From Chthoniobacterales bacterium (GTDB lineage: Bacteria; Verrucomicrobiota; Verrucomicrobiia; Chthoniobacterales; UBA10450): a DNA stretch of 64,000 bases. Location: positions 14,708 to 78,707 of the forward strand of contig JBBRDU010000001.1 of assembly GCA_038203615.1 (NCBI GenBank). Direction: 5' to 3'. A program made the position numbers and the translations under genes. The notes under the pieces were generated by a model. That model was not told where the DNA came from, ran no database searches, and worked only from the letters and a program-made list of their open reading frames with translations. Shown in pieces: positions 4,077 through 63,090 of this stretch (positions within the stretch are counted from its first letter, which is position 1; each line of letters begins with the position of its first letter).

Positions 4077-4153
4077 GCGCAGGGTCCCGATTCAGGGAGC
4101 GAAGCTTAACGTTGCCCTCTCCGATGACAAGCGGATTTGGGCGAAACGGGGAG

Positions 4154-7112: not shown

Positions 7113-7185
7113 GTGCGACAGCTTGAAGATTCACGTGTTAGCTTTTGAAGTAAGAGAGCCTGCCGGACTGACTTAAAGCTTAATA

Positions 7186-29895: not shown

Positions 29896-29898
29896 AGT

Positions 29899-29921
29899 AA
29901 AAGCGGCAGGACGCCGCTTTT
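29899..29921 (+). terminator. rho-independent terminator after the kinase gene
   Basis: AAAAGCGGC-AGGAC-GCCGCTTTT, starting 4 nt after the TGA. Confidence 0.7.
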
Positions 29922-30125
29922 ACGTGTCCCTCGGCGCTGCTTGCGTCCTCTGCTGGTTCCCCAATTCGTGGCGAAAACCCCGTCTTCTGTAGGGGAAGCT
30001 GTCAGCTTCCCGTCACCCAGGTAGGGATGGCTCTTCGAGCCGTCCGGCCTCGACGCGCCTTCTTCAGGTTTCCCGGAAAAATGGCTACTGGATTCACGCC
30101 CCAGTTTTGATAGTGTTCTAATTCC

Positions 30126-40603: not shown

Positions 40604-40704
40604 TGCTCTCCTCTTCTCTATCATAACCCGCTTATGATCGATGAGTTTTGACCGAAGAAAGTGTGCCGGGGCGGGAAGACCTTTCCTAAAAGCAGGTGTT
40701 TAAA

Positions 40705-40732
40705 ACTCGACGGCTTTAAGCCGTCGAGTTTC
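40705..40732. terminator. bidirectional-looking stem-loop
   Basis: ACTCGACGGC-TTTAA-GCCGTCGAGT is flanked by TAAAA on the left and TTT on the right. On the minus strand it follows an apparent orphan 3' coding end (..APRSNDPTKLTDALAELYKPPT*). Confidence 0.5.
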
Positions 40733-48011: not shown

Positions 48012-49499
48012 TTAAGGCAGGGTGGCGCTGATCCGGGAAACCAAACTCGCTGGGTTCAGGCCGAGAAAGAGAACGATGGCGGCGAGAGCAGCCAGGGAAG
48101 CCTGTTGCCATGGATCTCGGGGAAGGCTGGCCGGGCTGGTTGTTCCAGCGGACGGTTTCTGGTCGGTAAAAATCACTTTGAGCACGATCAGGTAATAATA
48201 GAGAGAGATCAGGCTGCCGAAGAGAGCCAGGACGACCAGCCAGAGCAGGCCGTGGCTTTGGCCGGAGCGCAGGGCCGCGCTGAAGAGGTAGAATTTTCCG
48301 AAAAATCCAGCCAGCGGCGGCAGACCGGCCAACGAGAGAAGAAAGATCGTCATGCAGGCCGCGGCCAGCGGAGAACGCGCCCACAGACCGGAGAAGTTTT
48401 TGAGATCGTCTCCTCCGGTTTCGCGTCGGACCAGCGCGACGATCCCGAACGCGCCTACCAGCGTGAAGGCGTAGATGGTGGTGTAGAAGAGCGTGGCTCG
48501 GAAGCCATCGGGGCCGCCCGCGACCAGGCCGAGCAGAGTATAGCCGGCGTGGGCCACGGCCGAGTAAGCCAGGAGTCGGCGCACGTTGGATTGCACCAGT
48601 GCGACCAAATTTCCCAGGAGGATCGAGAGGGCGGCCAACGCGGCCAGCGCCGGGACCCATCCCGCGACCATGGCGTGCCAGGCGGCGCTGCCGGCCAAAG
48701 GTCCGAACCCGATGAGCACGATTTTTCCGAGTACGAAAAACGATGCGACCTTGGAACCGGACGCGATGAATGCGGCGGAGGAAATGGGCGCGCCCTGATA
48801 GGCTTCGGGCGCCCAGAGATGGAACGGGGCCGCGGCCACTTTGAAGCCGAGTCCCACGAGCGTCATGACGAGGCCGGCGGCGAGCAAAGGTTGGACGGGC
48901 GCACCGCTCAGTTTTTGAGCAATCGCCGCGAGCCCGGTGGTGCCGGACATGCCATAGACCAGGCTCAGTCCGAAGAGAGTGAAGGCGCTGGCCGTGCTGC
49001 CGAAGAGGAAATACTTGAGGCCCGCCTCAGCGGAGCGGACATCGGTTTTGTCGAAACCGGTCATGATATAAAGGGACAGACCGGTGAGTTCGAGCCCGAT
49101 AAAGATCATGAGAAGCTCCTCGCTGCCGACGAGCAGCAGGAGGCCGACGGTGGCGAGGAGCAGCATGGCGAGGTACTCGCCGCGGTTTTGCAGGAGCTTT
49201 TGCCCGTGAGCGAGGAGCACGGTGAAGAAGGCGAGGACGAGGCAGATGATCTTGAAGAGCGAGGTGAGCGGAGAGATCACGATCATGCCGCCGAACAGAC
49301 GGGCCTCCTGAGGTAGCATGGAAACCGTGACAATGGCGCCGGCTATTCCCGCGACCGCGGCCAGGGAGCAGAGCCTGCTTCCGCCTGTCTTTCGCTTATT
49401 CGTTAGGCCAAGGCCGAGGACGAGCAGCGCGGTCACGACCACGACGATCTCGGGCGACACCAGTTTGACCAGGTCGAAATAGTTCACAGCGGCGTTCAC
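48012..49499 (-). CDS. nuoN: NADH-quinone oxidoreductase subunit N
   Basis: 495-aa antiporter-like subunit, last in the nuo order. GTG start. Confidence 0.9.
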   Translation of the reverse strand: MNAAVNYFDLVKLVSPEIVVVVTALLVLGLGLTNKRKTGGSRLCSLAAVAGIAGAIVTVSMLPQEARLFGGMIVISPLTSLFKIICLVLAFFTVLLAHGQKLLQNRGEYLAMLLLATVGLLLLVGSEELLMIFIGLELTGLSLYIMTGFDKTDVRSAEAGLKYFLFGSTASAFTLFGLSLVYGMSGTTGLAAIAQKLSGAPVQPLLAAGLVMTLVGLGFKVAAAPFHLWAPEAYQGAPISSAAFIASGSKVASFFVLGKIVLIGFGPLAGSAAWHAMVAGWVPALAALAALSILLGNLVALVQSNVRRLLAYSAVAHAGYTLLGLVAGGPDGFRATLFYTTIYAFTLVGAFGIVALVRRETGGDDLKNFSGLWARSPLAAACMTIFLLSLAGLPPLAGFFGKFYLFSAALRSGQSHGLLWLVVLALFGSLISLYYYLIVLKVIFTDQKPSAGTTSPASLPRDPWQQASLAALAAIVLFLGLNPASLVSRISATLP

Positions 49500-49512: not shown

Positions 49513-50997
49513 TCATTTCAGGAATCTCATGGCTGCAACGGCTGGCATGATCCGGTCGAAGAGAAATTTGGGATAAACACCGGCGGCCAGGGTGGCGAGC
49601 ATGAGCAGGGCTGCGCCGCATTTCTCGGCCAAAGTGATGGGCTCGAGCACGGGCTGGTGCGCCCCGGCGCTTTCGGTGCCTTCCGTCGTCTTGTCGTCCG
49701 CGCTGAAAAACGACTTCTTCAAAGCGCGCAGGGTAAACGCCGCCACCAGCACCATGCCGGCGCCGGTGATCCAGACCGCCAGCGGAAAGGCTTTCCATGT
49801 TCCGATCAGGATGGTGATTTCAGCGGCGAATCCGCTGAAGCCCGGAATGCCCATGGAGGCAGCCGAGGCGATGACAAAGGCGAAGGCAGCGAAAGGCAGG
49901 GCCCGACTCAAGTCCATGGTCGAAAGCGCATCGAGATCGCGCGTGTGGGTGCGCGGGTAGATCATGCGCCCGGCGATGGCGAAGAGGAGTGCGCCGATGA
50001 CGCCGTGCGAGAACATTTGCAGGACCGCCCCGGAGACCCCGAGCGCGTTGGCCGTGGCGAGACCCAACAAGACGAAGCCCATGTGACTGACACTCGAATA
50101 TCCGATGACGAATTTAAGGTCGCGTTGCCGGAGCGCGACGGCGGCCGCGTAAACAATCCCGATGACAGCGGCGACGGCGATCCAATGGCGCCACATCTGG
50201 AACCCTTCCGGGAACAAATTCATAGCTACGCGCAGGGCGCCGTAAGCGCCGAGCTTCATGACGATGCCCGCGAGCAACATGGAACCAGCGGTGGGCGCGG
50301 CGACGTGGCCGGTGGGCGCCCATGTGTGCAACGGCCAGAGACCGGCCAGCACGGCGAACCCGAGAAATAAAACCGGGAACGCCCAGGCCTGAAGTTGCGG
50401 CGGGAAGGGGAAGCGCGCAAGTTGTTGAAGGTCGAGCGAGGAGGCCAGGCCGCTTTGACTGGCGGCGACGTAGGCGGCCAGGATACCAATGAAGACGAGC
50501 GCGCCGCCGAAGAAGGAATAGAGCGTCAACTTCATGGCGCCGTACTCCTTCCGGGTCGATCCCCAGAGCGCGATCAGGAAATATTTCGGGACAATGACGA
50601 GTTCGTAGAAAACGAAGAAGAGAAAGAGATCGGCGCTGAGGAAGACCCCATAGGAGCCGCCGACCACGAGCAGTAACCAGAAAAAAAACTCGTTAGGCCG
50701 TTCCTTCACGTCCCAGGAAAAAAGAATGGCACTGACGGCGGTCAGGCTGGTGACGAGACACATGGTCAGGCTGATCCCGTCCGCCGCCAGATGATAATTC
50801 ATCCCGAGGTTAGCCACCCAGGGGATATTGATAATGGTTTGGAAGGCGCCGAAATCGGTCGTCTGAAAGAAGGCGCGGAAAGTGATGACGGAACCGGCCA
50901 CGGCGGTGAGCAGGGCGATCCAGCGCGACCAAACGCGCGGCAGGACCAGCAACAGCACGGCGCCGGCGAACGTGATGTAAATGGTCCAGGCGATCAT
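49513..50997 (-). CDS. nuoM: NADH-quinone oxidoreductase subunit M, paralog 2
   Basis: ..HLAADGISLTMCLVTSL.., FYELVIVPKYFLIALWGS..KEYGAMKL. The ATG overlaps the ORF6N stop (ATGA). Confidence 0.9.
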   Translation of the reverse strand: MIAWTIYITFAGAVLLLVLPRVWSRWIALLTAVAGSVITFRAFFQTTDFGAFQTIINIPWVANLGMNYHLAADGISLTMCLVTSLTAVSAILFSWDVKERPNEFFFWLLLVVGGSYGVFLSADLFLFFVFYELVIVPKYFLIALWGSTRKEYGAMKLTLYSFFGGALVFIGILAAYVAASQSGLASSLDLQQLARFPFPPQLQAWAFPVLFLGFAVLAGLWPLHTWAPTGHVAAPTAGSMLLAGIVMKLGAYGALRVAMNLFPEGFQMWRHWIAVAAVIGIVYAAAVALRQRDLKFVIGYSSVSHMGFVLLGLATANALGVSGAVLQMFSHGVIGALLFAIAGRMIYPRTHTRDLDALSTMDLSRALPFAAFAFVIASAASMGIPGFSGFAAEITILIGTWKAFPLAVWITGAGMVLVAAFTLRALKKSFFSADDKTTEGTESAGAHQPVLEPITLAEKCGAALLMLATLAAGVYPKFLFDRIMPAVAAMRFLK

Positions 50998-51548
50998 TGA
51001 CTCTTGCCGGTTCGGTACCGCGGCGCTTTCTCGCGAACATGAAATCCGATCTCGCGCTGAGGCTTGGCCAGTGGAGCCATCAACTGCCGGATCGCTTCCA
51101 GAATGGCATCGATCTTTCGGTCATGTTTCCCGACACGCTTTTCAAGTTCGGAAAATTTTCGTGCCAATTTGCGATTTGTCTCGAGGGTCTCGCGCAGCTT
51201 CACGAACGCGCGCATGATTGCGATGTTAACACTTATGGCGCGCTCGGTGTTTAGGACGCTCGACAACATGGCTACGCCGTGTTTGGTGAAGGCGTAAGGG
51301 CGGTATTTGAGGTGCTGTCCTCTCTTTAAGGTCACAGATCGTGACCTTAAAGAGAGGGTCTCCTCCGAGCTGAGCTGAAACATGAAATCCTCAGGGAAGC
51401 GCGTGGCGTTGCGCTTGACGGCCTGATTAAGCACTTTCGTCGCGACGCCATATAAAGCGGCCGGATCGAGATCGAGTAGCACCTTTTCTCCGCGCAATAA
51501 GCAAACCGCCTGCGCAATCTGTTGAAAGGGAATGATCTCCTTACTCAT
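50994..51548 (-). CDS. ORF6N/KilA-N-type DNA-binding domain protein
   Basis: ..ALYGVATKVLNQAVKRNATRFPEDFMFQLS..RPYAFTKHGVAMLSSVLNTERAISVNIAIMRAF.., plus a coiled-coil-like C-terminus. Confidence 0.8.
   Translation of the reverse strand: MSKEIIPFQQIAQAVCLLRGEKVLLDLDPAALYGVATKVLNQAVKRNATRFPEDFMFQLSSEETLSLRSRSVTLKRGQHLKYRPYAFTKHGVAMLSSVLNTERAISVNIAIMRAFVKLRETLETNRKLARKFSELEKRVGKHDRKIDAILEAIRQLMAPLAKPQREIGFHVREKAPRYRTGKSQ
51319..51357. repeat. perfect 17+17-bp palindrome inside the ORF6N gene
   Basis: CCTCTCTTTAAGGTCAC-AGATC-GTGACCTTAAAGAGAGG. It encodes ..TLSLRSRSVTLKRGQ.. Confidence 0.9.
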
Positions 51549-51620
51549 TCAGTCAAGGTAACAGATCGCTTCGTCTTCCCTGTAAGCGTGATTTCAGGAG
51601 CCATGTTAGTCTAGCGTCCG

Positions 51621-53093
51621 TCAGGCCAACAGCCGCGCCATCTGCACGACGGTGGTGTTGAAGATGTTGAAAAGGAATTGGGGGGAGATGCCGATGGCGA
51701 ACATGAGTAACGTGACCGGCACGATCACAAGTTTTTCGCGGCGCATGAGATCGGGGAAGGCGGCGCAGGTTTGCGCGAGTGGACCGCTGAAGAGCAATTG
51801 CATGGCGCGGAGGAAGACTATGGCGGTGACGAGCAGACCGAGCACAGCCACGGCCGTATAAGAAGCGGTCACGGCGAAGGAGCCTTTGAAGATGAGGAAT
51901 TCGCCGATGAATCCGTTCAGACCGGGCAGGCCCAGCGACGAGAACATGGCAACGCTCATCCAACCGCAGAGCAGCGGGGTGCGTTGCATGAGGCCTCCGA
52001 AATCGTGCAGGCCGCGCGCGCCGCGACGTTGCTCGAGGATACCGACGAAATAGAAGAGGGCGGCGGCGGTGATGCCGTGGTTAAAAATTTGCATAAACAC
52101 TCCGCTCAAGGCCGCCTGCATCTCGACGGCGGGACGGGTAGCCGCGCCCGAAACCGCGAAGAGACCAAGCATGCAATAGCCGAGATGGTTGATGGAGAGG
52201 TAGGCGACCATCCGTTTCAGATCCGATTGCGCCCACGCGGCGAGGGAAGCGAAGACGATCGAGCAAACGGCCAGACCGAGCAGCCAAGGAGCGAGGATTC
52301 TGATCTCGTTAGGAAAAAGCGGGAGAAGCAAACGGACAAAGCCGTAGACGCCCATCTTTGAAAGAACACCCGTCAAGACCATGGATACGCCGATGGGTGC
52401 AGTCTCATATGCGTCGGGCAGCCAGGTATGGAATGGGAAGAGCGGCACCTTCACGGCGAGGCCGAGAAAGATTCCGGCAAAGGCAAACCAGGCCAGGTGG
52501 CCGGTGAGCAGCCCACTTTTTCCAAGCGTGGCGAGCTGCCCGAAATCGAACGTTCCCTTGGCAAAATAAATTCCTAGAAAAGAGAGCAACATGGCTACGC
52601 TGCCGAGGAACGTGTAAACGAAGAATTTGGTGGCGGCGCGGTCGCGGTTGGGCCCGCCCCAGATTTTGATGAGGAGGAACGCCGGGATCAGGCTCATCTC
52701 GTAGAACAAAAACCAGAGCACGAAGTTTTGCGCGGTGAACGTGCCGTAGAGAGCGGATTGCATCACCAGCATGAGCGCGCAGAAGCCACGGCTGCCCCGT
52801 TGCGCGAAGGCGGCAAAGGGGAAAATGAGAGAGGTCAGCAGAACAAGGAGCAGGCTCAAGCCATCGAGGCCGACGAGATATTCCGCGCCGATGGCCGGGA
52901 TCCAAGCGTGACGCTCAACTAATTGCAACCCCGCCGCAGCCGAGTCGAACTTTTGCCAGAGCATCAAGGCATAAAAGGCGGAAAGCGCGTTGAACAGGAG
53001 AGCGAGGACGCGGGCCTTACGCGGCCGCCCGATGCAGAGGGCGAATGCGCCGACCAGCGGAATAAAAATGAGTCCGGTAATCAGGCCAGCCAT
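51621..53093 (-). CDS. nuoM: NADH-quinone oxidoreductase subunit M, paralog 1
   Basis: ..WIPAIGAEYLVGLDGLSLLLVLLTSL.., FYEMSLIPAFLLIKIWGG..R..AATKFF. Confidence 0.9.
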   Translation of the reverse strand: MAGLITGLIFIPLVGAFALCIGRPRKARVLALLFNALSAFYALMLWQKFDSAAAGLQLVERHAWIPAIGAEYLVGLDGLSLLLVLLTSLIFPFAAFAQRGSRGFCALMLVMQSALYGTFTAQNFVLWFLFYEMSLIPAFLLIKIWGGPNRDRAATKFFVYTFLGSVAMLLSFLGIYFAKGTFDFGQLATLGKSGLLTGHLAWFAFAGIFLGLAVKVPLFPFHTWLPDAYETAPIGVSMVLTGVLSKMGVYGFVRLLLPLFPNEIRILAPWLLGLAVCSIVFASLAAWAQSDLKRMVAYLSINHLGYCMLGLFAVSGAATRPAVEMQAALSGVFMQIFNHGITAAALFYFVGILEQRRGARGLHDFGGLMQRTPLLCGWMSVAMFSSLGLPGLNGFIGEFLIFKGSFAVTASYTAVAVLGLLVTAIVFLRAMQLLFSGPLAQTCAAFPDLMRREKLVIVPVTLLMFAIGISPQFLFNIFNTTVVQMARLLA

Positions 53094-55057
53094 GCGTAGA
53101 GAAGGAGCAGCGCGAGCATGCCGAAGGCGACGGCTCCCAGGTAGGTTTGAATTCGTCCGGAATGCGCGGCGGACATCAGGCGTCCCAGGCCGCGCGTGCC
53201 GGCGGTGGCCTCATCGATGCCGGCGTTGAGTCCGCGTTCATCAAAGCCTTTGGTCAGAATGCCGAACAGTTGGCCCACTCCGCCCAGCGTCCGGACGAGG
53301 CCATCCCAGACGTATCGATCCATCCAATCGGAAACCCGGGCCAGAAATCTGGCAAAGGCGATGACGGTGACCGCGTAGAGATCATCCAGCCACATTTTTT
53401 CTTCGAGAAAACGGTACAAGGCGGGCTGCGCTCGCTCCAGCGGATCGGCGGTCTGTCCGACTCCGCGGTAGAAGAGCCAACCCAGTCCGATGCCAACCGC
53501 AACGAGCGCGAGCGAAACAAAAAGCATCGATTGAAAGAGTCGCCCCATCTCAAAATGGGAAACGTCACCCGCGAGATAGTCGTGCAGCCACGGCCAGGCT
53601 GGCGTGAGCACCACGCTGAAAAGAATAGAGCAGAGGGCGAGGACCAGGAGCGGAATGGTCATGACGGAGGGAGATTCATGAGCCTGCTTCGAGGCTTCCC
53701 GGCGGTCGCCAAAAAAGACGTAAATGATCTGGCGAGTCATGTAGAGCGCGGTCAGAACGACTCCCGCGAGCATGAGGTAATAAGGCCAGGGCGATCCGGG
53801 CCAATGCGCGGTTTCGTGCAGGATTTCCTCCTTGGTCCAGGCGCCTGAGAAAAAGAGCGGAACACCGCTCAGGGTCATCATGCCGATCGCGTAGGTCAGG
53901 AAAGTGACCGGCATGATCCGCCTTAACCCACCCATCTTGCGAATGTCCTGTTCGTGGTGACAGCCGTGAATGACGGATCCGGACCCGAGGAACAACAGGG
54001 CCTTGAAGAAACCGTGCGCCAGTAAGTGCATGATGCCGGCGGGGACGCCGCCGACGCCTAACGAAACCATCATCAGGCCGAGCTGCGACACGGTCGAGTA
54101 GGCGAGGATTCGTTTAATGTCGGCCTGGGCGATAGCAATGAGCGCGGCCAGTAAAGCGGTGATCACTCCGATCCACACAACGACCGTGAGCGAGGGCGTT
54201 ACGCCATGAACGGCGCGGACAGCAAACAGCGGATAAACGCGTGCCACCAGAAAGACGCCGGCTGCCACCATGGTGGCAGCATGGATGAGCGCGCTCACCG
54301 GGGTCGGGCCTTCCATGGCATCGGGCAGCCAGACGTGGAGCGGGAACTGGCCGGACTTGCCGACGGCGCCGCAGAAAATCAAAAGCGCAATGGAAGTGGC
54401 AGCGGCGCCGAGAGCCAGCAACCCGGCGCTCTCAAGACAGCCATGGCCGTCGTCGTAAAAAACCAAGGTGCCGCTGCTGTGATAGAGCCAGAGCAGGCCG
54501 AGGAAGAATCCGATATCGCCGATGCGCGTGGTGATGAACGCTTTCTTGGCGGCGGCGGCGGCGCTCGGTTTGTCAATCCAGAATCCGATGAGCAGATAGG
54601 AAGCGAGTCCGACCAATTCCCAGCAAACGAAGAGGAGAAGGAGACTGTTGGCGATGACCACGCCGAGCATGGCGGCGGTGAAGAACGAGAGATAGGCGAA
54701 GAAGCGGGTGAAATTCTTGTCTTCCGCCATGTAGCCGATGCTGAAGATGAAAATGCACAGGCTCACGAGCGTGATCATGCCGAGCATGGCGGCGGTGATC
54801 GGATCGAGCACCCAGCCGAGGCGCACGGCGTTTTCTCCGAAAGTGAACCAGGTGAAATTATGGAAGGCGCGGTAGCCGGGGGAAGTGAGGGTGGGGAGGA
54901 AGGCAATGATCGCGAGGATGAAGGCGGCGGCTTGGCCGAGAACAGCCAGAGCGGCGGCGGCGGTGCGACGGGAGTTGTTGAGACTCAGGATGAACAGGGA
55001 GGCCGCGAGGGGGACGGCGGGGACGAGCCAGAGGTGAGGGACGATCCAGGGGCTCAT
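53081..55057 (-). CDS. nuoL: NADH-quinone oxidoreductase subunit L (658 aa, long C-terminal lateral-helix region)
   Basis: NuoL-type antiporter-like core. It has ~100 aa from the DDLYAV motif to the C-terminal TM helix. Confidence 0.9.
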   Translation of the reverse strand: MSPWIVPHLWLVPAVPLAASLFILSLNNSRRTAAAALAVLGQAAAFILAIIAFLPTLTSPGYRAFHNFTWFTFGENAVRLGWVLDPITAAMLGMITLVSLCIFIFSIGYMAEDKNFTRFFAYLSFFTAAMLGVVIANSLLLLFVCWELVGLASYLLIGFWIDKPSAAAAAKKAFITTRIGDIGFFLGLLWLYHSSGTLVFYDDGHGCLESAGLLALGAAATSIALLIFCGAVGKSGQFPLHVWLPDAMEGPTPVSALIHAATMVAAGVFLVARVYPLFAVRAVHGVTPSLTVVVWIGVITALLAALIAIAQADIKRILAYSTVSQLGLMMVSLGVGGVPAGIMHLLAHGFFKALLFLGSGSVIHGCHHEQDIRKMGGLRRIMPVTFLTYAIGMMTLSGVPLFFSGAWTKEEILHETAHWPGSPWPYYLMLAGVVLTALYMTRQIIYVFFGDRREASKQAHESPSVMTIPLLVLALCSILFSVVLTPAWPWLHDYLAGDVSHFEMGRLFQSMLFVSLALVAVGIGLGWLFYRGVGQTADPLERAQPALYRFLEEKMWLDDLYAVTVIAFARFLARVSDWMDRYVWDGLVRTLGGVGQLFGILTKGFDERGLNAGIDEATAGTRGLGRLMSAAHSGRIQTYLGAVAFGMLALLLLYAWLA

Positions 55058-55220: not shown

Positions 55221-55535
55221 CTAGCCTTTCATAGAGGTGAGCCGATCGACGTTGGTCGTGCGGTAGTGGCGATAAACGGCGATGACGAGGGCGAGACCAA
55301 CGGCGGCTTCGGCGGCGGCGATAGCAATGGCGAAGATAGCCACCATGACGCCGGTGGGCTGGGGCGAGGCGGGTCCGAAGCGCCAGAAGGCGACGAAGTT
55401 GAGATTAGCGGCGGCCAGCATCAATTCGACACCGATCAGAATGTAAATAGCATGGCGCCGGCTCAGCGCGGCCAGCAGTCCAATACTGAACAACGCCGCG
55501 GAGACAACGAGAAAATGCGTAAGTGTGGGGGTCAT
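55221..55535 (-). CDS. nuoK: NADH-quinone oxidoreductase subunit K
   Basis: 104 aa, 3 TM helices, ..IGVELMLAAANLNFVAF.. and ..AAAEAAVGLALV.. Confidence 0.9.
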   Translation of the reverse strand: MTPTLTHFLVVSAALFSIGLLAALSRRHAIYILIGVELMLAAANLNFVAFWRFGPASPQPTGVMVAIFAIAIAAAEAAVGLALVIAVYRHYRTTNVDRLTSMKG

Positions 55536-55558
55536 CGGTTCGTTAGGCCATCATTTCG

Positions 55559-56041
55559 TCATGGCTTTTCCTCCGTGGCCAGGACGAGTGCGCCGATGAG
55601 CGCGGCGGTGAGAATCAGGCCTACGCATTGCAGAGGCCAAACGTAACTTGTCATGAGCGAATCACCGATCTGCTTGACGGTGAGGGCTGCGGCAGGAAGT
55701 GGCGCGGTGGCCAACACTGACGTTTTGAGAATAGACCAAAGAAGCGCGGCGAAGACCAAGGCGGCGATGAAGGCGCCACCCCATTTGAAGGGCGCGACCG
55801 GTTCGAGTTCGTGCCGGGTCAGCAGAACGGTAAAGACAATGAGGACGGCCACGGCGCCGACGTAGACAAAGACCTGGACGAGGCCGACGAATTCGGCGCC
55901 GAGCAAAAAGTAAAAGGCAGCGACGCCGACAAACCCGACGGCCAGGCAAAGGGCGGCGTGAATCAATTTGGACAAGGAAGCGGCCGCCAGCGCGGCGGCC
56001 AGCGTGAAAACGGCGATGACGATGAACGCGACCTGGTTCAT
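55559..56041 (-). CDS. nuoJ: NADH-quinone oxidoreductase subunit J
   Basis: 160 aa, ..GAEFVGLVQVFVYVGAVAVLIVF.. The ATG overlaps the nuoH stop. Confidence 0.85.
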   Translation of the reverse strand: MNQVAFIVIAVFTLAAALAAASLSKLIHAALCLAVGFVGVAAFYFLLGAEFVGLVQVFVYVGAVAVLIVFTVLLTRHELEPVAPFKWGGAFIAALVFAALLWSILKTSVLATAPLPAAALTVKQIGDSLMTSYVWPLQCVGLILTAALIGALVLATEEKP

Positions 56042-57228
56042 TCGGCAAAACGGTAGGTGCGCGGGGCGAATTTCCTCCGCGTGTCGAGGAACCAGGACAG
56101 CGCCACGTAAACAACCAGCACTACGGCGAAGGACCAGAGCCAGCCGGACAAGCCGTGGGCCCGGTAATGCCAGACCGCCGCGGAAATAATGCAGGTAAAC
56201 GCCATTGGTAGCATAAATTTCCAGGCGAAATTCATGACCTGATCGACGCGGGTGCGGGGGAGCGTCCCGCGAATCCAGATAAAGACGAAAAGCAGCGCGG
56301 ACAATTTCGCGAAGAACCAGGCGTAGGACGGCACGATTTCAAGAAACCGTAAGGGCGCGTGCCAGCCTCCCAGGAAGAGGGTCACAGCCAGGCCGCTCAC
56401 GGCAAACATGCCGAAATATTCCGCCATGAAAAAGGTGGCGTATTTAAACCCGGAATATTCCGTCATGTGCCCGGCCACAATTTCCGATTCGCCTTCCGGC
56501 ACATCGAAGGGAGTGCGGTTCGATTCGACCAGGCCGGAGATAAAGAAGAGAATGAACGCGGCCCCGCCCCACGGAGTGAAGACGAACCAGCGCGGCACGA
56601 TGCCGTGCACGTACCCGCCTTGCGCGGCCACGATGGCATCGGGTGAGAGCGAACCGACAATCATGACAACAGGAAGCACCGTGATGATGAGCGGCAGTTC
56701 ATAACTGACCATTTGGGCAATAGCGCGCATGGCGCCCAACATGGAAAACTTGTTGTTGCTGCCCCATCCCGCCATGAAAACGGCCAGCTCCGTCATCGAA
56801 CCGACCGCGAAAAAGAAGAGAATCCCGCCGTCGATGGCGAACGCAGTCATATTGCGGCCGTAGGGAATGATGCCGAGCGCGAGGATGGTCGGCAGCACCA
56901 TCATAATAGGAGCGAGGAAATGCACGACCTTGTCCGCGCGGATTGGGACGATGTCTTCCTTGATCAGCATCTTAATGCCGTCGGCCACCGGTTGAAGCAG
57001 GCCAAAGGGCCCGACGCGATTGGGCCCGTAGCGGTTTTGAATGCGCCCGAGAATCTTGCGTTCCAGCACCGAGATGAGGGCGAAGAGGGTGAGGAACACG
57101 CCCATGACGGCGGCGATGTTGAGAAGACTCGACGCGATTTGGATCACCCAGTCGGGCGCATGAACCAGCCATGAGAGCAGCCACTGCTTCGCGATAACGA
57201 AGATTTGATCAACTGAATGGCTGGTCAT
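56038..57228 (-). CDS. nuoH: NADH-quinone oxidoreductase subunit H
   Basis: ..ERKILGRIQNRYGPNRVGPFGLLQPVADGIK.., ..ESEIVAGHMTEYSG.. Confidence 0.9.
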   Translation of the reverse strand: MTSHSVDQIFVIAKQWLLSWLVHAPDWVIQIASSLLNIAAVMGVFLTLFALISVLERKILGRIQNRYGPNRVGPFGLLQPVADGIKMLIKEDIVPIRADKVVHFLAPIMMVLPTILALGIIPYGRNMTAFAIDGGILFFFAVGSMTELAVFMAGWGSNNKFSMLGAMRAIAQMVSYELPLIITVLPVVMIVGSLSPDAIVAAQGGYVHGIVPRWFVFTPWGGAAFILFFISGLVESNRTPFDVPEGESEIVAGHMTEYSGFKYATFFMAEYFGMFAVSGLAVTLFLGGWHAPLRFLEIVPSYAWFFAKLSALLFVFIWIRGTLPRTRVDQVMNFAWKFMLPMAFTCIISAAVWHYRAHGLSGWLWSFAVVLVVYVALSWFLDTRRKFAPRTYRFAE

Positions 57229-57356
57229 CCCGGATGAAGGAAAGCGATGCCCGACTCTTCAATCAAGCAGAATGAAGAGATAGCGATGGGTTTCGGCCGG
57301 CCTGAATCCCTTAGTGGCAGCGGCGGCGAAATGAGCCGAGCAGCGTCCGGACCGAC

Positions 57357-57482
57357 TTATTCGACTTGCCCGGTGAGATCGGAAGCTTCGGTTTTCGCGA
57401 ACTCCGCCGCGCGGGCGAGACCGATGAAAACAACGAAAGTAACAATCAGACCCAGTCCGAAAATTGCGATAATGAATTCCAT
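57357..57482 (-). CDS. 41-aa single-TM micro-protein
   Basis: Not in the track. MEFIIAIFGLGLIVTFVVFIGLARAAEFAKTEASDLTGQVE*. Its ATG overlaps the stop of the 64-aa ORF (ATGA). Confidence 0.4.
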   Translation of the reverse strand: MEFIIAIFGLGLIVTFVVFIGLARAAEFAKTEASDLTGQVE

Positions 57483-57676
57483 CAGCCTCTCCGGTTCTTA
57501 GCAAGAATGGTGGTCAAAATGGCGACGCGCACTCCGACCCAGAGGGACAGAATGCTCGGCACCCAGATTCCGACGAACATTCCGTAGTCGCGGTTTACGA
57601 GAAACCAGAGAGCGACGCTGGCGACGAAGCTTGCGAAAGTCGCAATCAGGAACGGGTAATCAATTTTATTGAACAT
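57482..57676 (-). CDS. 64-aa two-TM micro-protein
   Basis: MFNKIDYPFLIATFASFVASVALWFLVNRDYGMFVGIWVPSILSLWVGVRVAILTTILAKNRRG. Two clear hydrophobic helices. Confidence 0.45.
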   Translation of the reverse strand: MFNKIDYPFLIATFASFVASVALWFLVNRDYGMFVGIWVPSILSLWVGVRVAILTTILAKNRRG

Positions 57677-57770
57677 AAGTGTGAGTTATCGAGGTTGGAA
57701 TTGCGGCGGCGGGCGTAGCAAATGGATTGCAAGTGTTTGGGTTGGAAGGTCCAGAAATCGAAATCGCCGA

Positions 57771-58313
57771 TTAATTTATCCGCGGTTTTCTTGCAGGTTC
57801 GATCGTCCGAGAAATATCGGCGATGGCACGGTTGATCTCCCCGTAAAGTTCGAGCAGCACGACATCGCTGACGGGGCCGCTGAGATGTTTGACGATGTAA
57901 CCCTGGCGGTCGACGACGTAAATATTGGCCACGTGTTTTTCAGAGGCGAATCGTTTCACTACGGTACCGTGCCAATCGAGCATTACGGGGCGGGTGAGCT
58001 GTTTGCTGAAGGTCTGGCGAAGTATCGCCCGGAACGGCTTTGGAACCGTTACAAGGTCAGCTACTCCATCGATATCGATGCGGTTTTCGTACTTTTCGTA
58101 AATTCGTTGAATCCACGGTGCGAGCTGGTCCGAGCCCCTGGCGTCCGCAACGCTTATGACCGTAATTTTCGACTTGGGGAAGAGATACTGGTGCGTTTTG
58201 AGGTCTTGATCGGTGAGTTCGAAATCGCCAAGCCTTCTGAACGGCCCTGCCACGACGACGGCGCTGATTCCGAACACGGTGACCAGCGTGAGCAAAAAGA
58301 TTTTCCGATTCAT
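57771..58313 (-). CDS. thioredoxin-fold (TlpA/redoxin-like) protein lacking the CxxC motif, membrane-anchored or secreted
   Basis: The start MNRKIFLLTLVTVFGISAVVVAG at 58313 overlaps the upstream stop. ..KITVISVADARGSDQLAPWIQRIYEKY.. sits where redoxins carry WCxxC. Confidence 0.55.
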   Translation of the reverse strand: MNRKIFLLTLVTVFGISAVVVAGPFRRLGDFELTDQDLKTHQYLFPKSKITVISVADARGSDQLAPWIQRIYEKYENRIDIDGVADLVTVPKPFRAILRQTFSKQLTRPVMLDWHGTVVKRFASEKHVANIYVVDRQGYIVKHLSGPVSDVVLLELYGEINRAIADISRTIEPARKPRIN

Positions 58314-59449
58314 GCCGCGCGGGGTTGAAAATATGAACGTCCGCGCCAGACCGCGGGCCGATTTCGCAGCGTCCGAAAAAATGCGAACCACTGGATCGCG
58401 AGGAGGGCACAGATCCCGAGTGGATGAAGCAACCCGCTGAGGAGTGGCTGGCGGAAGCGCACGACGCCGATGAGCCGCGGGAGAAGCGAGGCAAAGACTC
58501 CGAGGAACGATAATGCAAGCGCGAGGGGCGACGCGGGAATGCGGAGAAGAGCGGTGGCGAGCACAAGAAATGGAAGAACTTGTCCACCGAGAAGGAGGAG
58601 AGTCGCTGGCCCAATGAGGTTCGGTGAACCGAGGCCTTCATGCGCGTTTCGAGCGAGACCTCCCCACACCTCCCGATTGCTGGAATACATTCGGCACGCG
58701 GCGATATCGGTGGCGTCGAAGAGATCGGTAGCGAACCCAGCGGCGCGAAAGACGCGCGGCAATTTCGAACCATCGTGCAACGTTCCTCGAATCGCACGAT
58801 GTCCGTCGCAGGCAAGATAGGCTTCGCGTTGCGCGACAAAAAGCTGGCCGCATCCGGCGCCCAAAGCAGGGTCGCGCCGGGTGCGCATGCGATGGATCGG
58901 CAGAAACCCGAGCAGCACAAAATGGATGAGTGGGATGAGTATTCGCTCCGAGAAACTCTGCGTCTCCTGTTGCGGCACACCGCTGGCGAGCGCGGCGCCA
59001 CTTTGTTCCATGAACCCGGAGATCCTCGCGAGCGCACCGGCTTTCAATCGGACGTCGGCGTCGATGAATAGGAGCAGCGGGTTGCGGGCGAGTCGTGCGA
59101 GGGTGTAGCAGGCGTGCTGTTTCCCGCACCATCCGGCCGGCAATGGCAAAGCTGTTTCAAGGCGAACGCGAGTGTCGCTTGAAGCGATTTCGCGGACGAT
59201 CTGTGCCGTGCGATCGGTTGAACCGTCATCCAGCACGATCAATTCAAGATCGACATCTTCCTCTCGCAAGATCGAGCGCACAGCGCGCTCGATCTGGTCC
59301 TCCTCGTTACGAGCCGGAATGAGCACCGAACACGGCGCGCGCGGAGGACTGCCCGCCCGCGCCGGCGAATATAGAGCGAGGTTGCGCAGGAAAAGCACGG
59401 CTGGGAAAATGGCCAAGAAGCAGCTTGCTCCGGCGATCCAAACGATCAT
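58310..59449 (-). CDS. family 2 glycosyltransferase of carotenoid-glycoside (CrtQ-like) type
   Basis: ..SVLIPARNEE..LIVLDDGSTDRT..GWCGKQHAC..FIDADVRL.., plus C-terminal TM helices. The ATG at 59449 overlaps the acyltransferase stop. Confidence 0.75.
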   Translation of the reverse strand: MIVWIAGASCFLAIFPAVLFLRNLALYSPARAGSPPRAPCSVLIPARNEEDQIERAVRSILREEDVDLELIVLDDGSTDRTAQIVREIASSDTRVRLETALPLPAGWCGKQHACYTLARLARNPLLLFIDADVRLKAGALARISGFMEQSGAALASGVPQQETQSFSERILIPLIHFVLLGFLPIHRMRTRRDPALGAGCGQLFVAQREAYLACDGHRAIRGTLHDGSKLPRVFRAAGFATDLFDATDIAACRMYSSNREVWGGLARNAHEGLGSPNLIGPATLLLLGGQVLPFLVLATALLRIPASPLALALSFLGVFASLLPRLIGVVRFRQPLLSGLLHPLGICALLAIQWFAFFRTLRNRPAVWRGRSYFQPRAA

Positions 59450-60258
59450 TTCAGATCCTTCTCGTGGTGGTCCGGGACGAATTTGTTTCCACCGGCGAGC
59501 GCACGCAACCGGCGCCACGTGTCGTAGATGACACTCACACCGGACGTTCCTTGTTCAAGAACGCGCCATTCGCCCGGATCACGCCGGCACGACCGCGCAG
59601 CGAGTTCGTCCTGAACTTCTTCGAGCGCGTTGTTAAAGAATTTCGTCCACTCCTGCGCGCTGCGTGGGGAGTCGTTTCCAGGAATTGTGGGTTCGCCGAA
59701 GGAGACTAGAATCTCGGGCCGAGGTTCGGTCCAAAAAGCATATTCAATCGCCAGGGGTAGAAATAAGACGTTCTCAAGTCGCGCGGCCAATTCGCCGATC
59801 CCGCGCTCAAGCCGGAGCGGACGCTCACGCACGTCCATGAAACGTCCCTGTGGTGTGAGCCAGACAACGTTTCGAGAAGAGCTGAGAATTGCGCAAGTAG
59901 TCCGGACAAATGTCATCGCGCCACGGGCCGACTGCTGCTCGACACCGTAAAAGCCGAGATGCTTAAAGAAGCCGTATTTCTGGAGCGCGGCGGCGTCAAT
60001 TGGCGCATACGACGCGCGGTCGGAGAAATATTTCTGGGCCAGGCGCAAGCAGACGAGAGGGTCCCACCAGGCTGCGTGATTCAGGTAGATGACCACCGGG
60101 CAGGCGATGTTGCTGGACGGCAGTCCGCTTTTCAAAACGCGGATTGTCTGAAAATGCCGACGCATATATCGGCGGCTGTAGGCCGCAAACATTCGGACAA
60201 GGCGCCCGGAGATTTTAGGCGGAGCCGCCGTTGGTTTCGGATGCGTTGCGAGTTTCAT
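59446..60258 (-). CDS. PlsC/LPLAT-family acyltransferase
   Basis: H(x)4D motif YLNHAAWWDP. An alternative ATG at 60336 would overlap the upstream gene by 77 nt. Confidence 0.75.
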   Translation of the reverse strand: MKLATHPKPTAAPPKISGRLVRMFAAYSRRYMRRHFQTIRVLKSGLPSSNIACPVVIYLNHAAWWDPLVCLRLAQKYFSDRASYAPIDAAALQKYGFFKHLGFYGVEQQSARGAMTFVRTTCAILSSSRNVVWLTPQGRFMDVRERPLRLERGIGELAARLENVLFLPLAIEYAFWTEPRPEILVSFGEPTIPGNDSPRSAQEWTKFFNNALEEVQDELAARSCRRDPGEWRVLEQGTSGVSVIYDTWRRLRALAGGNKFVPDHHEKDLK

Positions 60259-60259
60259 C

Positions 60260-61801
60260 TCATCGCACGAGTTCCGGCTCCCGCCGTCCCGAATCACTTG
60301 CAGAAACCTCGCCGGACGCGTCCTTATCCAGCGCATCCGCGGCGATCCAGCCAGACATCAAGACCATCGGCATCCCTGGGCCTGGATGAGCGGCGCCCCC
60401 TGCGAGGTAGAGGCCACGGACATCGGGACTGCGGTTACTTGGCTTGAACGCGCCAGTGAAGCGCCCGTGACTGGCGACTCCATAAATTGCGCCATTGAGG
60501 ACGTGATATCGTTCGTGGATATCCTGCGGGGTCAACGCGCTCTCTGTCACAATATCGGGCTCGAGGTCGAGCCCCGCGGTGAGGCGCAGTTTATCCAGAA
60601 TGGTGCGGCGGTAATCGGGCAGCATTTTTTTCCAATCATGATGCGGGCGCAGATAGGGTGTGTGCACCAGAACGTAGAGCGCTTCGCCACCATTGGGGGC
60701 CACGGCGGGATCGCTCGCGGCGGGCGCGCAAACATAACAAGTGGGATCGGGCGCCGGTTCGCCTTTGCCATAGATGAAATCGAATTCGTCGTGCGGATTG
60801 CGCGAGAAGACGAAGTTATGATGGAGCAGTTGCGGCGGGCGCTTGCGCAAGCCGAGATACAACACGACACCGGAGCAGGCCGGTTCGTAACGTCGCCGCC
60901 GCTCGAATTTTTTCACGCCCCCGAGCAGTTCGCGATGCGTGCGAACGGAATCGCAATTCGAAATCACTGCCTCAAATGGGACGTGCCGTCCACTCTCCAA
61001 CTCGACGCCCGTGACTTTGCGGTTGGTAATTGAGATCCTCTTTACGGCTGTGCCGGTTCGCAGTTCGACGCCCAAATCCGTGGCGAGCCTTGCCAACGCT
61101 TGCGGTATGACTCCAGTTCCCCCGCGCGGATACCAAACGCCTTCGCTCGTTTGCATATGAGCGATTCCGCAGAGCACCGCTGGCGATGCGTCGGGGGCCG
61201 AGCCCACGTATTGGGTGAAGTGATCGACCATTTGCGCGACCCGGGCATCCGGCACAAACGAGCGAACCGTGCCGGCGACGCTGCGGCCCATCCGGAGCGC
61301 GAGCACATCGGACAATGTGCCAGCCTGCATCATGTTTCTGGCGCTGAACATGTCGCGCAAGCCGCCCAGAGGCCGCCAAAAGAACCAATTGGCCGAGATC
61401 CTGTGAATACGCTCCGACAATTCCAGAAACCGTTCGTAACCAGCCGCGGTTTTTGCCGAAGAAAATTTGGTGAGTTCGTCGCGCATTGCTTTCGCGTCGG
61501 CCACCAAATCCAGGATTGTCCCGTCGTCGAAGAACGATCGCCATTGCGGGTCGAGGCGCACCAGATCGATCGCATCATCAAGGTCGCGCCCGGCCTCTGC
61601 GAAGATCCGTTTCAAGACAGACGGCAAGGTCAGGATGGTCGGGCCCATGTCGAAACGGAATCCGTCTTTTTCTAACACGGCGGCCTTGCCGCCGAGCCAT
61701 TCGTTGCGTTCGAAGAGGGTCACTTCGTAGCCGCGCGCTGCCAGCACGCAGGCGGAGGCCAGTCCGCCCAGTCCGCCACCGATAATACCTACTCGTTTCA
61801 T
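60260..61801 (-). CDS. phytoene-desaturase-family oxidoreductase (CrtP/CrtD-like)
   Basis: MKRVGIIGGGLGGLASACVLAARGYEVTLFERNEWLGGKA.. and a C-terminal ..LYLAGGAAHPGPGMPMV. Confidence 0.85.
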   Translation of the reverse strand: MKRVGIIGGGLGGLASACVLAARGYEVTLFERNEWLGGKAAVLEKDGFRFDMGPTILTLPSVLKRIFAEAGRDLDDAIDLVRLDPQWRSFFDDGTILDLVADAKAMRDELTKFSSAKTAAGYERFLELSERIHRISANWFFWRPLGGLRDMFSARNMMQAGTLSDVLALRMGRSVAGTVRSFVPDARVAQMVDHFTQYVGSAPDASPAVLCGIAHMQTSEGVWYPRGGTGVIPQALARLATDLGVELRTGTAVKRISITNRKVTGVELESGRHVPFEAVISNCDSVRTHRELLGGVKKFERRRRYEPACSGVVLYLGLRKRPPQLLHHNFVFSRNPHDEFDFIYGKGEPAPDPTCYVCAPAASDPAVAPNGGEALYVLVHTPYLRPHHDWKKMLPDYRRTILDKLRLTAGLDLEPDIVTESALTPQDIHERYHVLNGAIYGVASHGRFTGAFKPSNRSPDVRGLYLAGGAAHPGPGMPMVLMSGWIAADALDKDASGEVSASDSGRREPELVR

Positions 61802-63090
61802 GGTTTTGTCTTTCTGCTTTTTATTTTTTGAATGATCGCGTTGATCAGATCGCGAATCGCGCCGAAGCGATCTCCTGATCGGCCGTGCAAAGCGAGGATA
61901 TAGGAGGAGAACAGGCGCGCGTCGTCCGGGTCCGGGTCGTCGAAATGCGGTCGCGCTTTGCCGCGGCGCAGCGCGACGACGTGCGGGAATGTCATTTCGA
62001 GCAAGCCCTCGTGGCCACGAGTGACGCCAAATCCACTCGCCCTTACGCCGCCAAAAGGCATGCGCGGATCGGCCGTCGGAACAATGAGATCATTGATGGT
62101 GACGAAGCCGCTCGTGATCCGCGCCGCCCATGCGCGCGCCTGCCTTACGTCCCGCGAGAAGATCGATACGCCGAGCGCGAAGTCCGCCGCCGAAACGCGC
62201 TCCAAGGCTGCCGGCACGTCTGGGACGCGCTCCACCGTTGGCGTTGGGACCCCGGCCTCCAACAAACGCGCGCGCAAATCGTCCGCGATGGAATCGACGA
62301 CGATGAGCCGTCGCGGCGCCATGCAGGTGTCGCCGCCATTCAAGCGCGCGCCAAAACGGAGCGCACCCATCACGAGGTCGAGATCGGCGTCCGCCAGAAC
62401 GAGCATGGCGTCCTCGCCGGACAGTTCCATGATGGCGGGAGTGTTCGTTGTCGCGAGTGTGGCAAGAACATCGCGTCCATTTTCGGACGATCCGGTGAAG
62501 ATTACCTTGTCCGGTCCTTCGGCAATGGCGCTTTGCGCCGCTTCGACGCTATGCGCTAGAACTGTGAGCAGCGCTGGATCGAGGCCGGCCGTGCGAGCGA
62601 GTTTGGCAAAGGCCAGGGCGACACCGCGCGTGCCCGGTGCCGGTTTCAACAGGACCGCATTTCCGGCAACCAGTGCCTGTAACGTCTGCACAGCTGGGAG
62701 AAAGAGGGGATAATTCCCTGGCCCAATCACGAGCACGACGCCGAAGGGTTGGCGCTGTACTTCGAACGACACGCCGCGCATCCACAACGGAGAGCCCATT
62801 CTTTCGCAACGTCGTGGAGCGAGGGCGCGGACCGCGCGTTGCGTCAGCCATCGGCAAGCATCGGCCAGGGGTAGCACTTCGGAGACAAGCTTCTCGGCGA
62901 CGGGGCGCTGGGCCACCGACGCAGCCTCCACCGCAAGGTCATGAGCGTGCGCAGCGATTAAGTAACGGAGTTCGCGAACGAAGTGCAATCGCTCGCCAAG
63001 CCGCCGTTGAGCCCACTGCGTCTGCGCCTGACGGGCTGCGACGAGATTCGCGCTGATCGTTTCGTTCCCTTGTTTGTTTCGATCGTGCAT
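61798..63090 (-). CDS. aldehyde dehydrogenase family protein
   Basis: ..FTGSSENGR.., ELSGED (catalytic Glu context), ..GGDTCMAP.. (catalytic Cys context). Start and stop are coupled to both neighbours. Confidence 0.8.
   Translation of the reverse strand: MHDRNKQGNETISANLVAARQAQTQWAQRRLGERLHFVRELRYLIAAHAHDLAVEAASVAQRPVAEKLVSEVLPLADACRWLTQRAVRALAPRRCERMGSPLWMRGVSFEVQRQPFGVVLVIGPGNYPLFLPAVQTLQALVAGNAVLLKPAPGTRGVALAFAKLARTAGLDPALLTVLAHSVEAAQSAIAEGPDKVIFTGSSENGRDVLATLATTNTPAIMELSGEDAMLVLADADLDLVMGALRFGARLNGGDTCMAPRRLIVVDSIADDLRARLLEAGVPTPTVERVPDVPAALERVSAADFALGVSIFSRDVRQARAWAARITSGFVTINDLIVPTADPRMPFGGVRASGFGVTRGHEGLLEMTFPHVVALRRGKARPHFDDPDPDDARLFSSYILALHGRSGDRFGAIRDLINAIIQKIKSRKTKP

Follow-up and report, generated by a model that had tools for sequence, protein, structure and literature searches.

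An ORF6N / PDC-S05-type gene with a conserved coding palindrome in the nuoM1–nuoM2 insertion hot spot of Chthoniobacterales

Integration hot spots and defence islands flanked by conserved core genes are an established concept, and cis-acting sites that lie within the very gene whose product uses them are known from parS in spo0J/parB and from pac in terminase genes. The 2M-type complex I, reportedly described by Chadwick et al. in 2018, is said to have a lengthened NuoL lateral helix that spans the extra subunit, and we know of no described 2M operon with an unrelated gene between its two nuoM genes. PMC12342949, which cites Chadwick et al. (ISME J 12:2668), presents 2M-type complex I as the form with two NuoM subunits. 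A representative of the defence candidate PDC-S05, which carries a RhuM domain, lowered the plating of T7 and T5 approximately 1000-fold in Escherichia coli (E. coli B) (bioRxiv 10.1101/2024.09.26.614923). The gene described here lies in a 64,000-nt stretch of a Chthoniobacterales bacterium (GenBank assembly GCA_038203615.1, contig JBBRDU010000001.1, positions 14,708 to 78,707 of the forward strand), hereafter referred to as the window. It is an ORF6N-domain gene at positions 50994–51548 of the minus strand, between the two nuoM genes of a complex I gene cluster. Our analysis makes it rather probable that this gene forms a functional cassette on its own, of the ORF6N / PDC-S05 type and of a defence or selfish nature, which occupies a junction-specific hot spot of the nuoHJKLM-MN operon and is not a regulator of complex I.

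The gene starts with ATG and encodes a protein of 184 aa. The first-pass annotation of the window had described a 184-aa open reading frame (ORF) with an ORF6N signature between the nuoM paralogues and on the same strand, and all motifs quoted there (RFPEDFMFQLS, PYAFT, GVAMLSSVLN and RAISVNIAIMRAF) were present in the translation. The Pfam profile ORF6N (PF10543) matched residues 15–98 over profile positions 3–86 of 86 with 99.4 bits (E=1.5e-28; cut-off 27.8), which settles the assignment that the annotation had made dependent on such models. The PADLOC model PDLC04856 for PDC-S05 matched residues 1–162 on profile positions 1–167 of 177 (E=1.2e-52), two more PDC-S05 hidden Markov models (HMMs) matched with E values of 4e-50 and 4e-37, and the profile phrog_4792 ('anti-repressor') matched with E=3.6e-25. 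The immediate neighbours, to which the check for phage genes was limited, are nuo genes, and no phage gene adjoined the ORF6N gene. The KilA-N model (PF04383) gave no match at E<=0.01, and the sole other Pfam match of the protein, Phage_pRha, reached 22.9 bits and was thus below its cut-off of 29.9. The designation 'KilA-N-type' used in the annotation could therefore be retained at the superfamily level only, at which Iyer et al. reportedly related ORF6N to KilA-N in 2002. Profile searches with the protein matched neither an NCBIfam family nor a solved structure and detected no catalytic domain. Since the window protein has no RhuM domain, we infer its defence activity and do not show it.

A low-confidence secondary-structure prediction gave an architecture in which an N-terminal ORF6N domain precedes a C-terminal half that is helical and resembles a coiled coil. 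The AlphaFold2 model, built from a 42-sequence alignment, was poor, with a predicted local distance difference test (pLDDT) value of 61.5, and residues 71–78, which are encoded by the hairpin described below, were under 50. A Foldseek search of this model against the PDB yielded nothing significant; the best hits were winged-helix proteins of the MarR type (E~0.05, template modelling score ~0.2) and were treated as uninformative. The C-terminal helices (residues 120–169) weakly resembled the ClpB linker just before nucleotide-binding domain 2 (E=0.009 in PDB, 0.005 in NCBIfam), probably as a result of coiled-coil composition noise. The GC content of the gene was 0.533, compared with 0.590 and 0.611 in the flanking nuoM genes, and the GC content at third codon positions (GC3) was 0.638, compared with 0.749 and 0.790; the difference that had been noted by eye was thus reproduced by calculation, and a GC3 below that of the flanks was found in 52 of 55 orthologous loci.

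Related loci were collected by a genome-collection scan with the ORF6N protein and by a second scan anchored on NuoM2, and the 72 species-level loci in which both nuoM genes were complete were counted. An intact ORF6N gene of 181–209 aa was present in 55 of these, an aberrant or truncated one in 5, and none in 12. Homologues with 63–80% identity numbered in the thousands in the protein database; the few with source names belonged to Chthoniobacterales or Spartobacteria, and the first three contigs inspected all showed the order nuoM-ORF6N-nuoM. The annotation had considered that the gene might be absent or pseudogenised in all close relatives, which is not the case. On a tree of NuoM1 and NuoM2 the empty loci appeared as scattered singletons, and the deepest branches carried the gene. 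Among the emptied or shortened junctions examined, those of L142, L104, L109, L162 and L100 retained recognisable 5′ or 3′ stubs of ORF6N, indicating that these junctions are deletions. With one outsider, the nuo-embedded alleles formed one clade among all ORF6N proteins examined. We infer from these sequence comparisons that the gene would have entered once, long ago, and would then have been retained for a long time and lost many times independently.

Some of the occupied junctions had a composite structure. In L105 and L128 (3431–4504) a frameshifted, truncated ORF6N gene, which runs through the hairpin to about residue 95, is followed in tandem by an intact ORF6N gene of another hairpin type, and a 68-aa ORF comes after the intact copy, its stop codon overlapping the GTG start codon of nuoM2. 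A multi-pass membrane protein of 204–209 aa with no Pfam match overlapped the nuoM2 start in two further loci (L113, 3890–4504; L139, 3875–4504); it comes after ORF6N in L113 and stands in its place in L139.

For an outgroup, a NuoM2 protein search gave in-clade sequences only, and 80 loci of Verrucomicrobiia/Pedosphaera and Acidobacteriaceae were therefore reached through a 59%-identical NuoM2 representative from a representative library together with a genome scan. None of these 80 sister-clade 2M operons contained an ORF6N gene. Inserts of more than 200 nt were counted at three junctions of the operon. Between nuoM1 and nuoM2 they were found in 64 of 76 loci of the Chthoniobacterales clade and in 14 of 72 loci of the sister clade; the corresponding counts were 0/73 and 1/59 between nuoL and nuoM1, and 1/86 and 0/70 between nuoM2 and nuoN. 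The sister-clade lodgers included a BsoBI restriction-modification (R-M) pair, an EcoRV endonuclease accompanied by a Dam-type methylase (both R-M systems being complete), a methylase-like pair, a PIN toxin next to a small ORF as its partner, and several uncharacterised proteins. In the R-M-type inserts of L185 (1364–4498), L188 (2703–4507) and L221 (2029–4494) the last ORF ended <=7 nt from the nuoM2 start, and the PIN pair of L202 (3782–4449) was encoded on the other strand, some 50 nt away from that start. An IS200-like Y1 transposase occupied the slot in five sister-clade Verrucomicrobiia genomes (L177, L178, L200, L205 and L232, at ~3700–4500), truncated in L178; these transposases are possibly of the RAYT type associated with repetitive extragenic palindromic (REP) elements. 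At the nuoM1–nuoM2 junction, selfish and defence genes land and are exchanged time and again. L162 was the sole locus with a large gap between nuoM2 and nuoN (5976–7261, ~1.27 kb). Several records of metagenome-assembled genomes (L181, L188, L237, L238, L251 and L160) were labelled Bifidobacteriaceae, Akkermansia muciniphila, Klebsiella pneumoniae or Pyrinomonadaceae, yet carried 2M operons of the Verrucomicrobia type; these contigs are probably mis-binned or mislabelled.

The TGA stop codon of the ORF6N gene overlaps the ATG start codon of nuoM2 in the sequence ATGA at 50994–50997 (minus strand), as the annotation had reported. Among the 55 intact orthologous loci the nuoM2 start was overlapped by ORF6N in 48, by 4 nt in 44 of them and by 1 nt in 4 more. 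Most of the unrelated ORFs lodged in the sister-clade slot likewise had their ends no more than about 7 nt from the start of nuoM2, and the overlap is therefore best explained by the need to have nuoM2 translated. It is probably a constraint on any insert placed before nuoM2, and not a mark of functional integration with complex I. On the other side, the distance of 72 nt between the nuoM1 stop and the ORF6N start was reproduced (spacer at 51549–51620, minus strand) and proved atypical, the gap being <=13 nt in 52 of the 55 orthologous loci. This spacer holds a mini-ORF of 19 codons (MAPEITLTGKTKRSVTLTE) that stops exactly at the ORF6N ATG (TGAATG), and a partial repeat of the hairpin, in which 13 of 14 positions match its loop and right arm (51555–51568 against 51328–51341; direct repeat D1). 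The spacer might be what is left of an older ORF6N allele, much like the truncated copy in L105 and L128, or it might act as a translational relay; for the match to arise by chance p is roughly 0.1.

A sigma-70 scan of 50700–51900 found no promoter-like site, and no intrinsic terminator (GC-rich stem with a T-run) was present in the same interval, the stem of the palindrome being followed by ACAGCACC. Because no promoter-like or terminator-like site was found, it is very likely that ORF6N is co-transcribed with the nuo operon. The annotation had offered two readings of the gene, and the first of these, a captured mobile gene now co-transcribed with respiratory genes, agrees with a captured gene of the mobile or defence type.

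Selection on the gene was compared with that on its flanks. In close pairs the ratio of nonsynonymous to synonymous substitution rates (dN/dS) was 0.10–0.25 for ORF6N and 0.06–0.11 for the nuoM genes, so that ORF6N is clearly under purifying selection, somewhat more relaxed than that on NuoM. This selection spans the whole protein and is strongest in the C-terminal half, far from the hairpin. Together with the intact copies, the scattered absences and the remnants, these ratios uphold the earlier statement that the gene is not a very recent neutral insertion. They also bear on whether it might be a functionless hitch-hiker, surviving because its deletion puts nuoM2 translation at risk. The loss or truncation of the gene in many lineages, its low GC3 and the harm that imprecise deletions across the nuoM2 overlap would cause are all consistent with such a passenger. 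Since a functionless gene would have decayed, a dN/dS of 0.10–0.25 maintained over dS values up to saturation, the large share of intact ORFs with many invariant residues, and 50–60% identity across phyla make this explanation highly improbable.

The history of the gene differed from that of its neighbours. Distances of ORF6N and NuoM were only moderately correlated (Mantel r=0.47), and in several close pairs the synonymous divergence of ORF6N was 2–4 times that of the flanks. The excess lay in the 5′ part: for L093/L103 the N-part had a proportion of synonymous differences (pS) of 0.99, compared with 0.23 for the C-part and 0.33–0.37 for the flanks. The locus nearest to the window by NuoM2 (90% identity) carried an ORF6N allele of only ~59% identity (measured with the L024 allele of the same type) and of a different hairpin type, and the window allele was closest to alleles of genomes whose NuoM was ~79% identical. 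The C-part was clade-specific, its identity being 77% among clade members and 61% when compared with outsiders, and the N-part was not, with 63% against 58%. We read this as a 3′ part that would be inherited vertically and tied to nuoM2, and a 5′ module that other ORF6N alleles appear to have displaced time after time through recombination. A maximum chi-square scan of third codon positions placed breakpoints on both sides of the hairpin/indel region; the C-part was the more similar half in nearly all cases, and differences in rate are therefore confounded with recombination. The scan pinned no breakpoint to the hairpin.

Outside nuo clusters, homologues with 50–63% identity were found in many phyla and in one archaeal bin. 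The ORF6N / PDC-S05 family consists of DNA-binding proteins that occur on mobile elements, within R-M operons and in further defence settings. Some were arranged as HsdM-ORF6N-HsdS or lay beside HsdR or Eco57I-type genes, and others lay beside housekeeping genes; no recombinase was consistently adjacent in the neighbourhoods of the loci from other phyla. Two or three ORF6N paralogues in tandem or nearby were seen in L017, L028, L038, L041, L047, L050, L069 and L083 (other phyla). In L017, L021, L035 and L068 an ORF of ~97–100 aa starts 24–34 nt after ORF6N on the same strand, and L042, L073 and L084 also have a small downstream ORF; these non-nuo loci come from different phyla, and the small ORF may be a partner gene.

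These homologues weigh on the second reading of the annotation, according to which the gene is dedicated to the second pump module as its transcriptional regulator or insulator. An N-terminal domain of the DNA-binding type, long-standing synteny and translational coupling would suit such a function. We nevertheless regard it as very unlikely, because all sister-clade 2M operons do without ORF6N, 17 of the 72 clade loci have no intact copy, the gene was repeatedly lost with remnants left behind and the operon intact, alleles were exchanged independently of the nuo genes, homologues of 50–63% identity occur across phyla in unrelated contexts such as type I R-M operons, and unrelated selfish genes, among them R-M systems, a PIN toxin and transposases, take up this slot in relatives.

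The ORF6N coding sequence contains a perfect palindrome at 51319–51357 (assigned to neither strand), with arms of 17 bp that are 100% complementary and a centre of 5 nt, encoding approximately residues 65–77 (LSLRSRSVTLKRG). No other perfect hairpin in the 64 kb of the window is as long, and it folds with −34.4 kcal/mol as RNA (z=−6.7) and −19.8 kcal/mol as DNA (z=−7.5). Two other perfect hairpins of the window, at 40703–40731 (13-bp arms) and 29897–29923 (11-bp arms), look like intergenic terminators. No second copy of the palindrome or of its half-sites was found in the window, and there was thus no sign of an operator upstream of nuoH, which further disfavours a regulator of the nuo genes. 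A scan of 50500–52000 with Rfam 15 gave only chance-level matches to hairpin families (19–20 bits against gathering scores of 60–90, E>=1), and a literature search found no paper linking ORF6N or KilA-N with a palindrome.

Orthologues carried the hairpin at the same codon position with different arm sequences. It was found in all 121 ORF6N genes examined, of which 55 were nuo-embedded and 66 belonged to other phyla. In 99 of these genes Watson-Crick pairing extended to at least 12 of 14 positions, compared with 7–11 in control windows of nuoM1. In an alignment of 116 sequences, 90.6% of cells were paired against 68.5% in shuffles, and two-sided changes amounted to 359 cells against 116, levels that were reached in 0/500 shuffles in either case. 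Covariation was detected in 11 of 14 pairs, and the signal collapsed once the partner was slid. The inner 12 pairs were 86–100% paired and pairs 13 and 14 ~59%, indicating a stem of defined length; the conserved form has 12 bp and a centre of 3 nt, and the stem was perfect in 73 of the 116 sequences, with 29 distinct arm sequences. Resampling of synonymous codons for the same peptides predicted 4.67 of 12 pairs, whereas 11.43 were observed, and the observed pairing exceeded all 200 resamples in 116 of the 121 genes. The palindrome is not a by-product of the encoded peptide and is kept against codon expectation. The encoded residues themselves covary by complementarity, Ser (TCA) with Val (GTG), Phe (TTC) with Gly (GGA) and Ser (TCG) with Ala (GCG).

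Distant ORF6N genes with 31–46% identity (Bacteroides, Legionella, Sulfuricurvum, Treponema, Butyrivibrio and Segatella plasmids) also carried the hairpin, even where the peptide differed. Genes on phage contigs (40–49% identity) had an imperfect version with 9–11 of 12 pairs, so that the family-wide presence of the hairpin does not mean a perfect one everywhere. The residue at the apex was a nearly invariant Gln, which is replaced by Arg (CGA) in the window allele and in L001 (51336–51340, codon 70). The 17-bp stem of the window was the longest in the data set, compared with 12 bp in L001, which is 98% identical. An inversion of the loop (AAT versus ATT on identical arms) was discarded as an explanation, the two forms being one substitution apart.

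Pairing was strictly Watson-Crick, and one-sided (G.U) changes were nearly absent, a pattern that looks more like a constraint at the DNA level or copying from arm to arm than like a typical RNA helix. An asymmetry of mismatches between the strands (9 G.T, 24 A.C) hints at the antisense strand; it is weak and phylogeny-dependent, and no use was made of it. The hairpin itself, and not the protein, could be what is selected, as an mRNA or DNA processing, stability or pause element that tunes the ratio of upstream to downstream subunits, with the ORF as a tolerated carrier. Such an element would fit the high stability of the RNA fold, the rank of the hairpin as the strongest perfect one of the window, and the covariation that keeps it in all nuo-embedded alleles. 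Such a hairpin, however, is a general feature of ORF6N genes, whether these lie in R-M operons, on plasmids or next to housekeeping genes, and was therefore not acquired for nuo. Purifying selection on the whole protein, strongest in the C-terminal half, the scarcity of G.U intermediates, which is unusual for an RNA helix, and the existence of cassette-less operons and of all sister-clade operons that manage without the hairpin leave a purely cis-acting role quite improbable.

The palindrome could be a site of recombination or module exchange, a structure that the encoded protein recognises, an element acting in the mRNA or a self-perpetuating quasi-palindrome. Tentatively, and with rather more doubt than confidence, we consider ORF6N genes to be autonomous single-gene cassettes whose embedded palindrome would be a functional cis element at the DNA level, kept across bacterial phyla, plasmids and an archaeal bin. 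As such an element, it could be a site for swapping N-terminal recognition domains or a structure recognised by the encoded DNA-binding protein. A role as an integration target was not supported, as the older truncated copy in L105/L128 continues ~70 nt past the hairpin.

The cassette might also be purely selfish or addictive, maintained by its own mobility or by post-segregational toxicity with no benefit for host defence, the palindrome serving as a recombination or mobility site. We judge this unlikely, if less so than an element selected for its hairpin alone. Solitary copies that are found in highly varied surroundings across phyla and lack an accompanying recombinase, the occurrence of tandem copies, the shuffling of an N-terminal module whose boundary lies somewhere around the hairpin region, and the R-M systems, toxin-antitoxin toxin and transposases that share the hot spot all point in its direction. 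Against it stand the lack of any breakpoint pinned to the hairpin, the extension of the truncated older copy in L105/L128 well beyond it, and the lack of a detected catalytic domain; the nuo alleles are, moreover, essentially monophyletic, and entry into the nuo site was therefore rare.

We favour the following course of events for the ORF6N / PDC-S05 cassette. It would have entered the nuoM1–nuoM2 junction once, in the ancestor of the clade, and would since have been transcribed passively with the nuo operon. The stop-start overlap would be kept because ribosomes must be handed on to nuoM2, and the protein would be kept by selection on a function of its own that is independent of nuo, most likely the recognition of phage or mobile-element DNA in defence against these. 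The gene is dispensable for complex I and has been deleted repeatedly, and its 5′ half has been shuffled by recombination with other ORF6N alleles. Several points weigh against this interpretation. About three quarters of the species keep the gene while NuoM identity is only 70–85%, which is unusually stable for a defence gene, and there may be some benefit linked to the operon, for instance through a strong hairpin in the polycistronic mRNA. The PDC-S05 protein that protected against phages has a C-terminal half unlike that of the short ORF6N form, which is without RhuM, and no known defence genes lie near ORF6N in the window, the neighbours being nuo genes. Co-transcription is deduced from the absence of consensus signals, and promoters of Verrucomicrobia may not fit a sigma-70 scan. 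Finally, this interpretation gives no reason for the acceptance of inserts at the nuoM1–nuoM2 junction alone.

The genes surrounding the cassette all lie on the minus strand, in the order nuoH-J-K-L-M1-ORF6N-M2-N. The first membrane-arm genes (55221–57228) are nuoH (56038–57228; PF00146), nuoJ (55559–56041; PF00499) and nuoK (55221–55535; PF00420). They are followed by nuoL (53081–55057; 658 aa; NF005141, 612.7 bits, cut-off 556) and nuoM paralogue 1 (51621–53093; 490 aa; TIGR01972, 468.8 bits, cut-off 263.8). Downstream of ORF6N lie nuoM paralogue 2 (49513–50997; 494 aa; TIGR01972, 426.8 bits, cut-off 263.8), whose start codon lies within the ORF6N stop, and nuoN (48012–49499; 495 aa; TIGR01770, 380.2 bits, cut-off 332.6), the final gene of the cluster. 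NuoM1 and NuoM2 of the window share ~31% identity and are both true NuoM proteins, so that two NuoM-class subunits are encoded between nuoL and nuoN, as in the 2M type. The genes nuoA–G and nuoI were not present in the window; what the annotation had called a nuo operon is a cluster limited to membrane-arm genes. Within the interval 55221–63956, the genes upstream of nuoH encode a family-2 glycosyltransferase, two amine-oxidase / phytoene-desaturase-like proteins and an aldehyde dehydrogenase.

Two results of this analysis, the hot spot and the palindrome, go beyond existing knowledge. A core bioenergetic operon can host a long-lived insertion hot spot for defence or selfish genes between translationally coupled subunit genes, and an intra-operon site of this kind widens the space in which defence genes may be sought. 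It also calls for caution, as membership of an operon and a start-stop overlap need not mean functional integration. The related loci include Chthoniobacterales and Candidatus Udaeobacter, a group that is very abundant in soils. Most species of this soil group would express an ORF6N / PDC-S05 protein from their complex I operon, amounting to constitutive expression of a candidate immune gene. The palindrome, fixed in position and maintained by compensatory changes, offers a concrete and testable lead on the uncharacterised ORF6N family. If it does act as a cis element at the DNA level, it would be an undescribed kind of gene-internal element and would help to explain the colonisation of slots such as that between nuoM1 and nuoM2.

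Compared with known systems, the palindrome resembles integron attC sites, REP elements and the end hairpins of IS200/IS605 in that structure is kept and not sequence, in its strict Watson-Crick pairing and in its tie to a horizontally mobile gene. It differs from these in having a perfect stem of 12 bp with a 3-nt centre and no extrahelical bases, and in its location in the middle of a protein-coding domain, neither at the end of an element nor intergenic, with no cognate recombinase linked to it. With parS and pac it shares, by analogy only, the presence of a palindromic DNA element within the gene for a DNA-binding protein. Whereas parS and pac keep their sequence, the ORF6N palindrome conserves complementarity only, and binding of the protein to it is hypothetical. 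The gene itself agrees with PDC-S05 in its nearly full-length HMM match, in having homologues between hsdM and hsdS or beside hsdR, and in being a single gene nested in the operon of another system, on the same strand and with tight spacing. Unlike PDC-S05, its host operon is that of the respiratory complex I membrane arm and not a defence operon, the window protein has no RhuM domain, and the coding palindrome is absent from any description of PDC-S05 found. The operon corresponds to 2M-type complex I in its two divergent nuoM genes in tandem between nuoL and nuoN, as likewise found in sister Verrucomicrobiia and in Acidobacteriaceae, and departs from it in the lodgers that both clades carry between these genes. 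With integration hot spots the locus has in common a fixed slot between conserved genes that is filled by varying R-M, toxin, transposase and candidate-defence genes, with presence/absence polymorphism and exchange of alleles. No integrase, tRNA or att-like repeat was seen at the nuo slot, and, in contrast to those hot spots, it lies within an operon, between translationally coupled subunit genes of one enzyme, with inserts that are co-oriented with nuoM2 and coupled to it.

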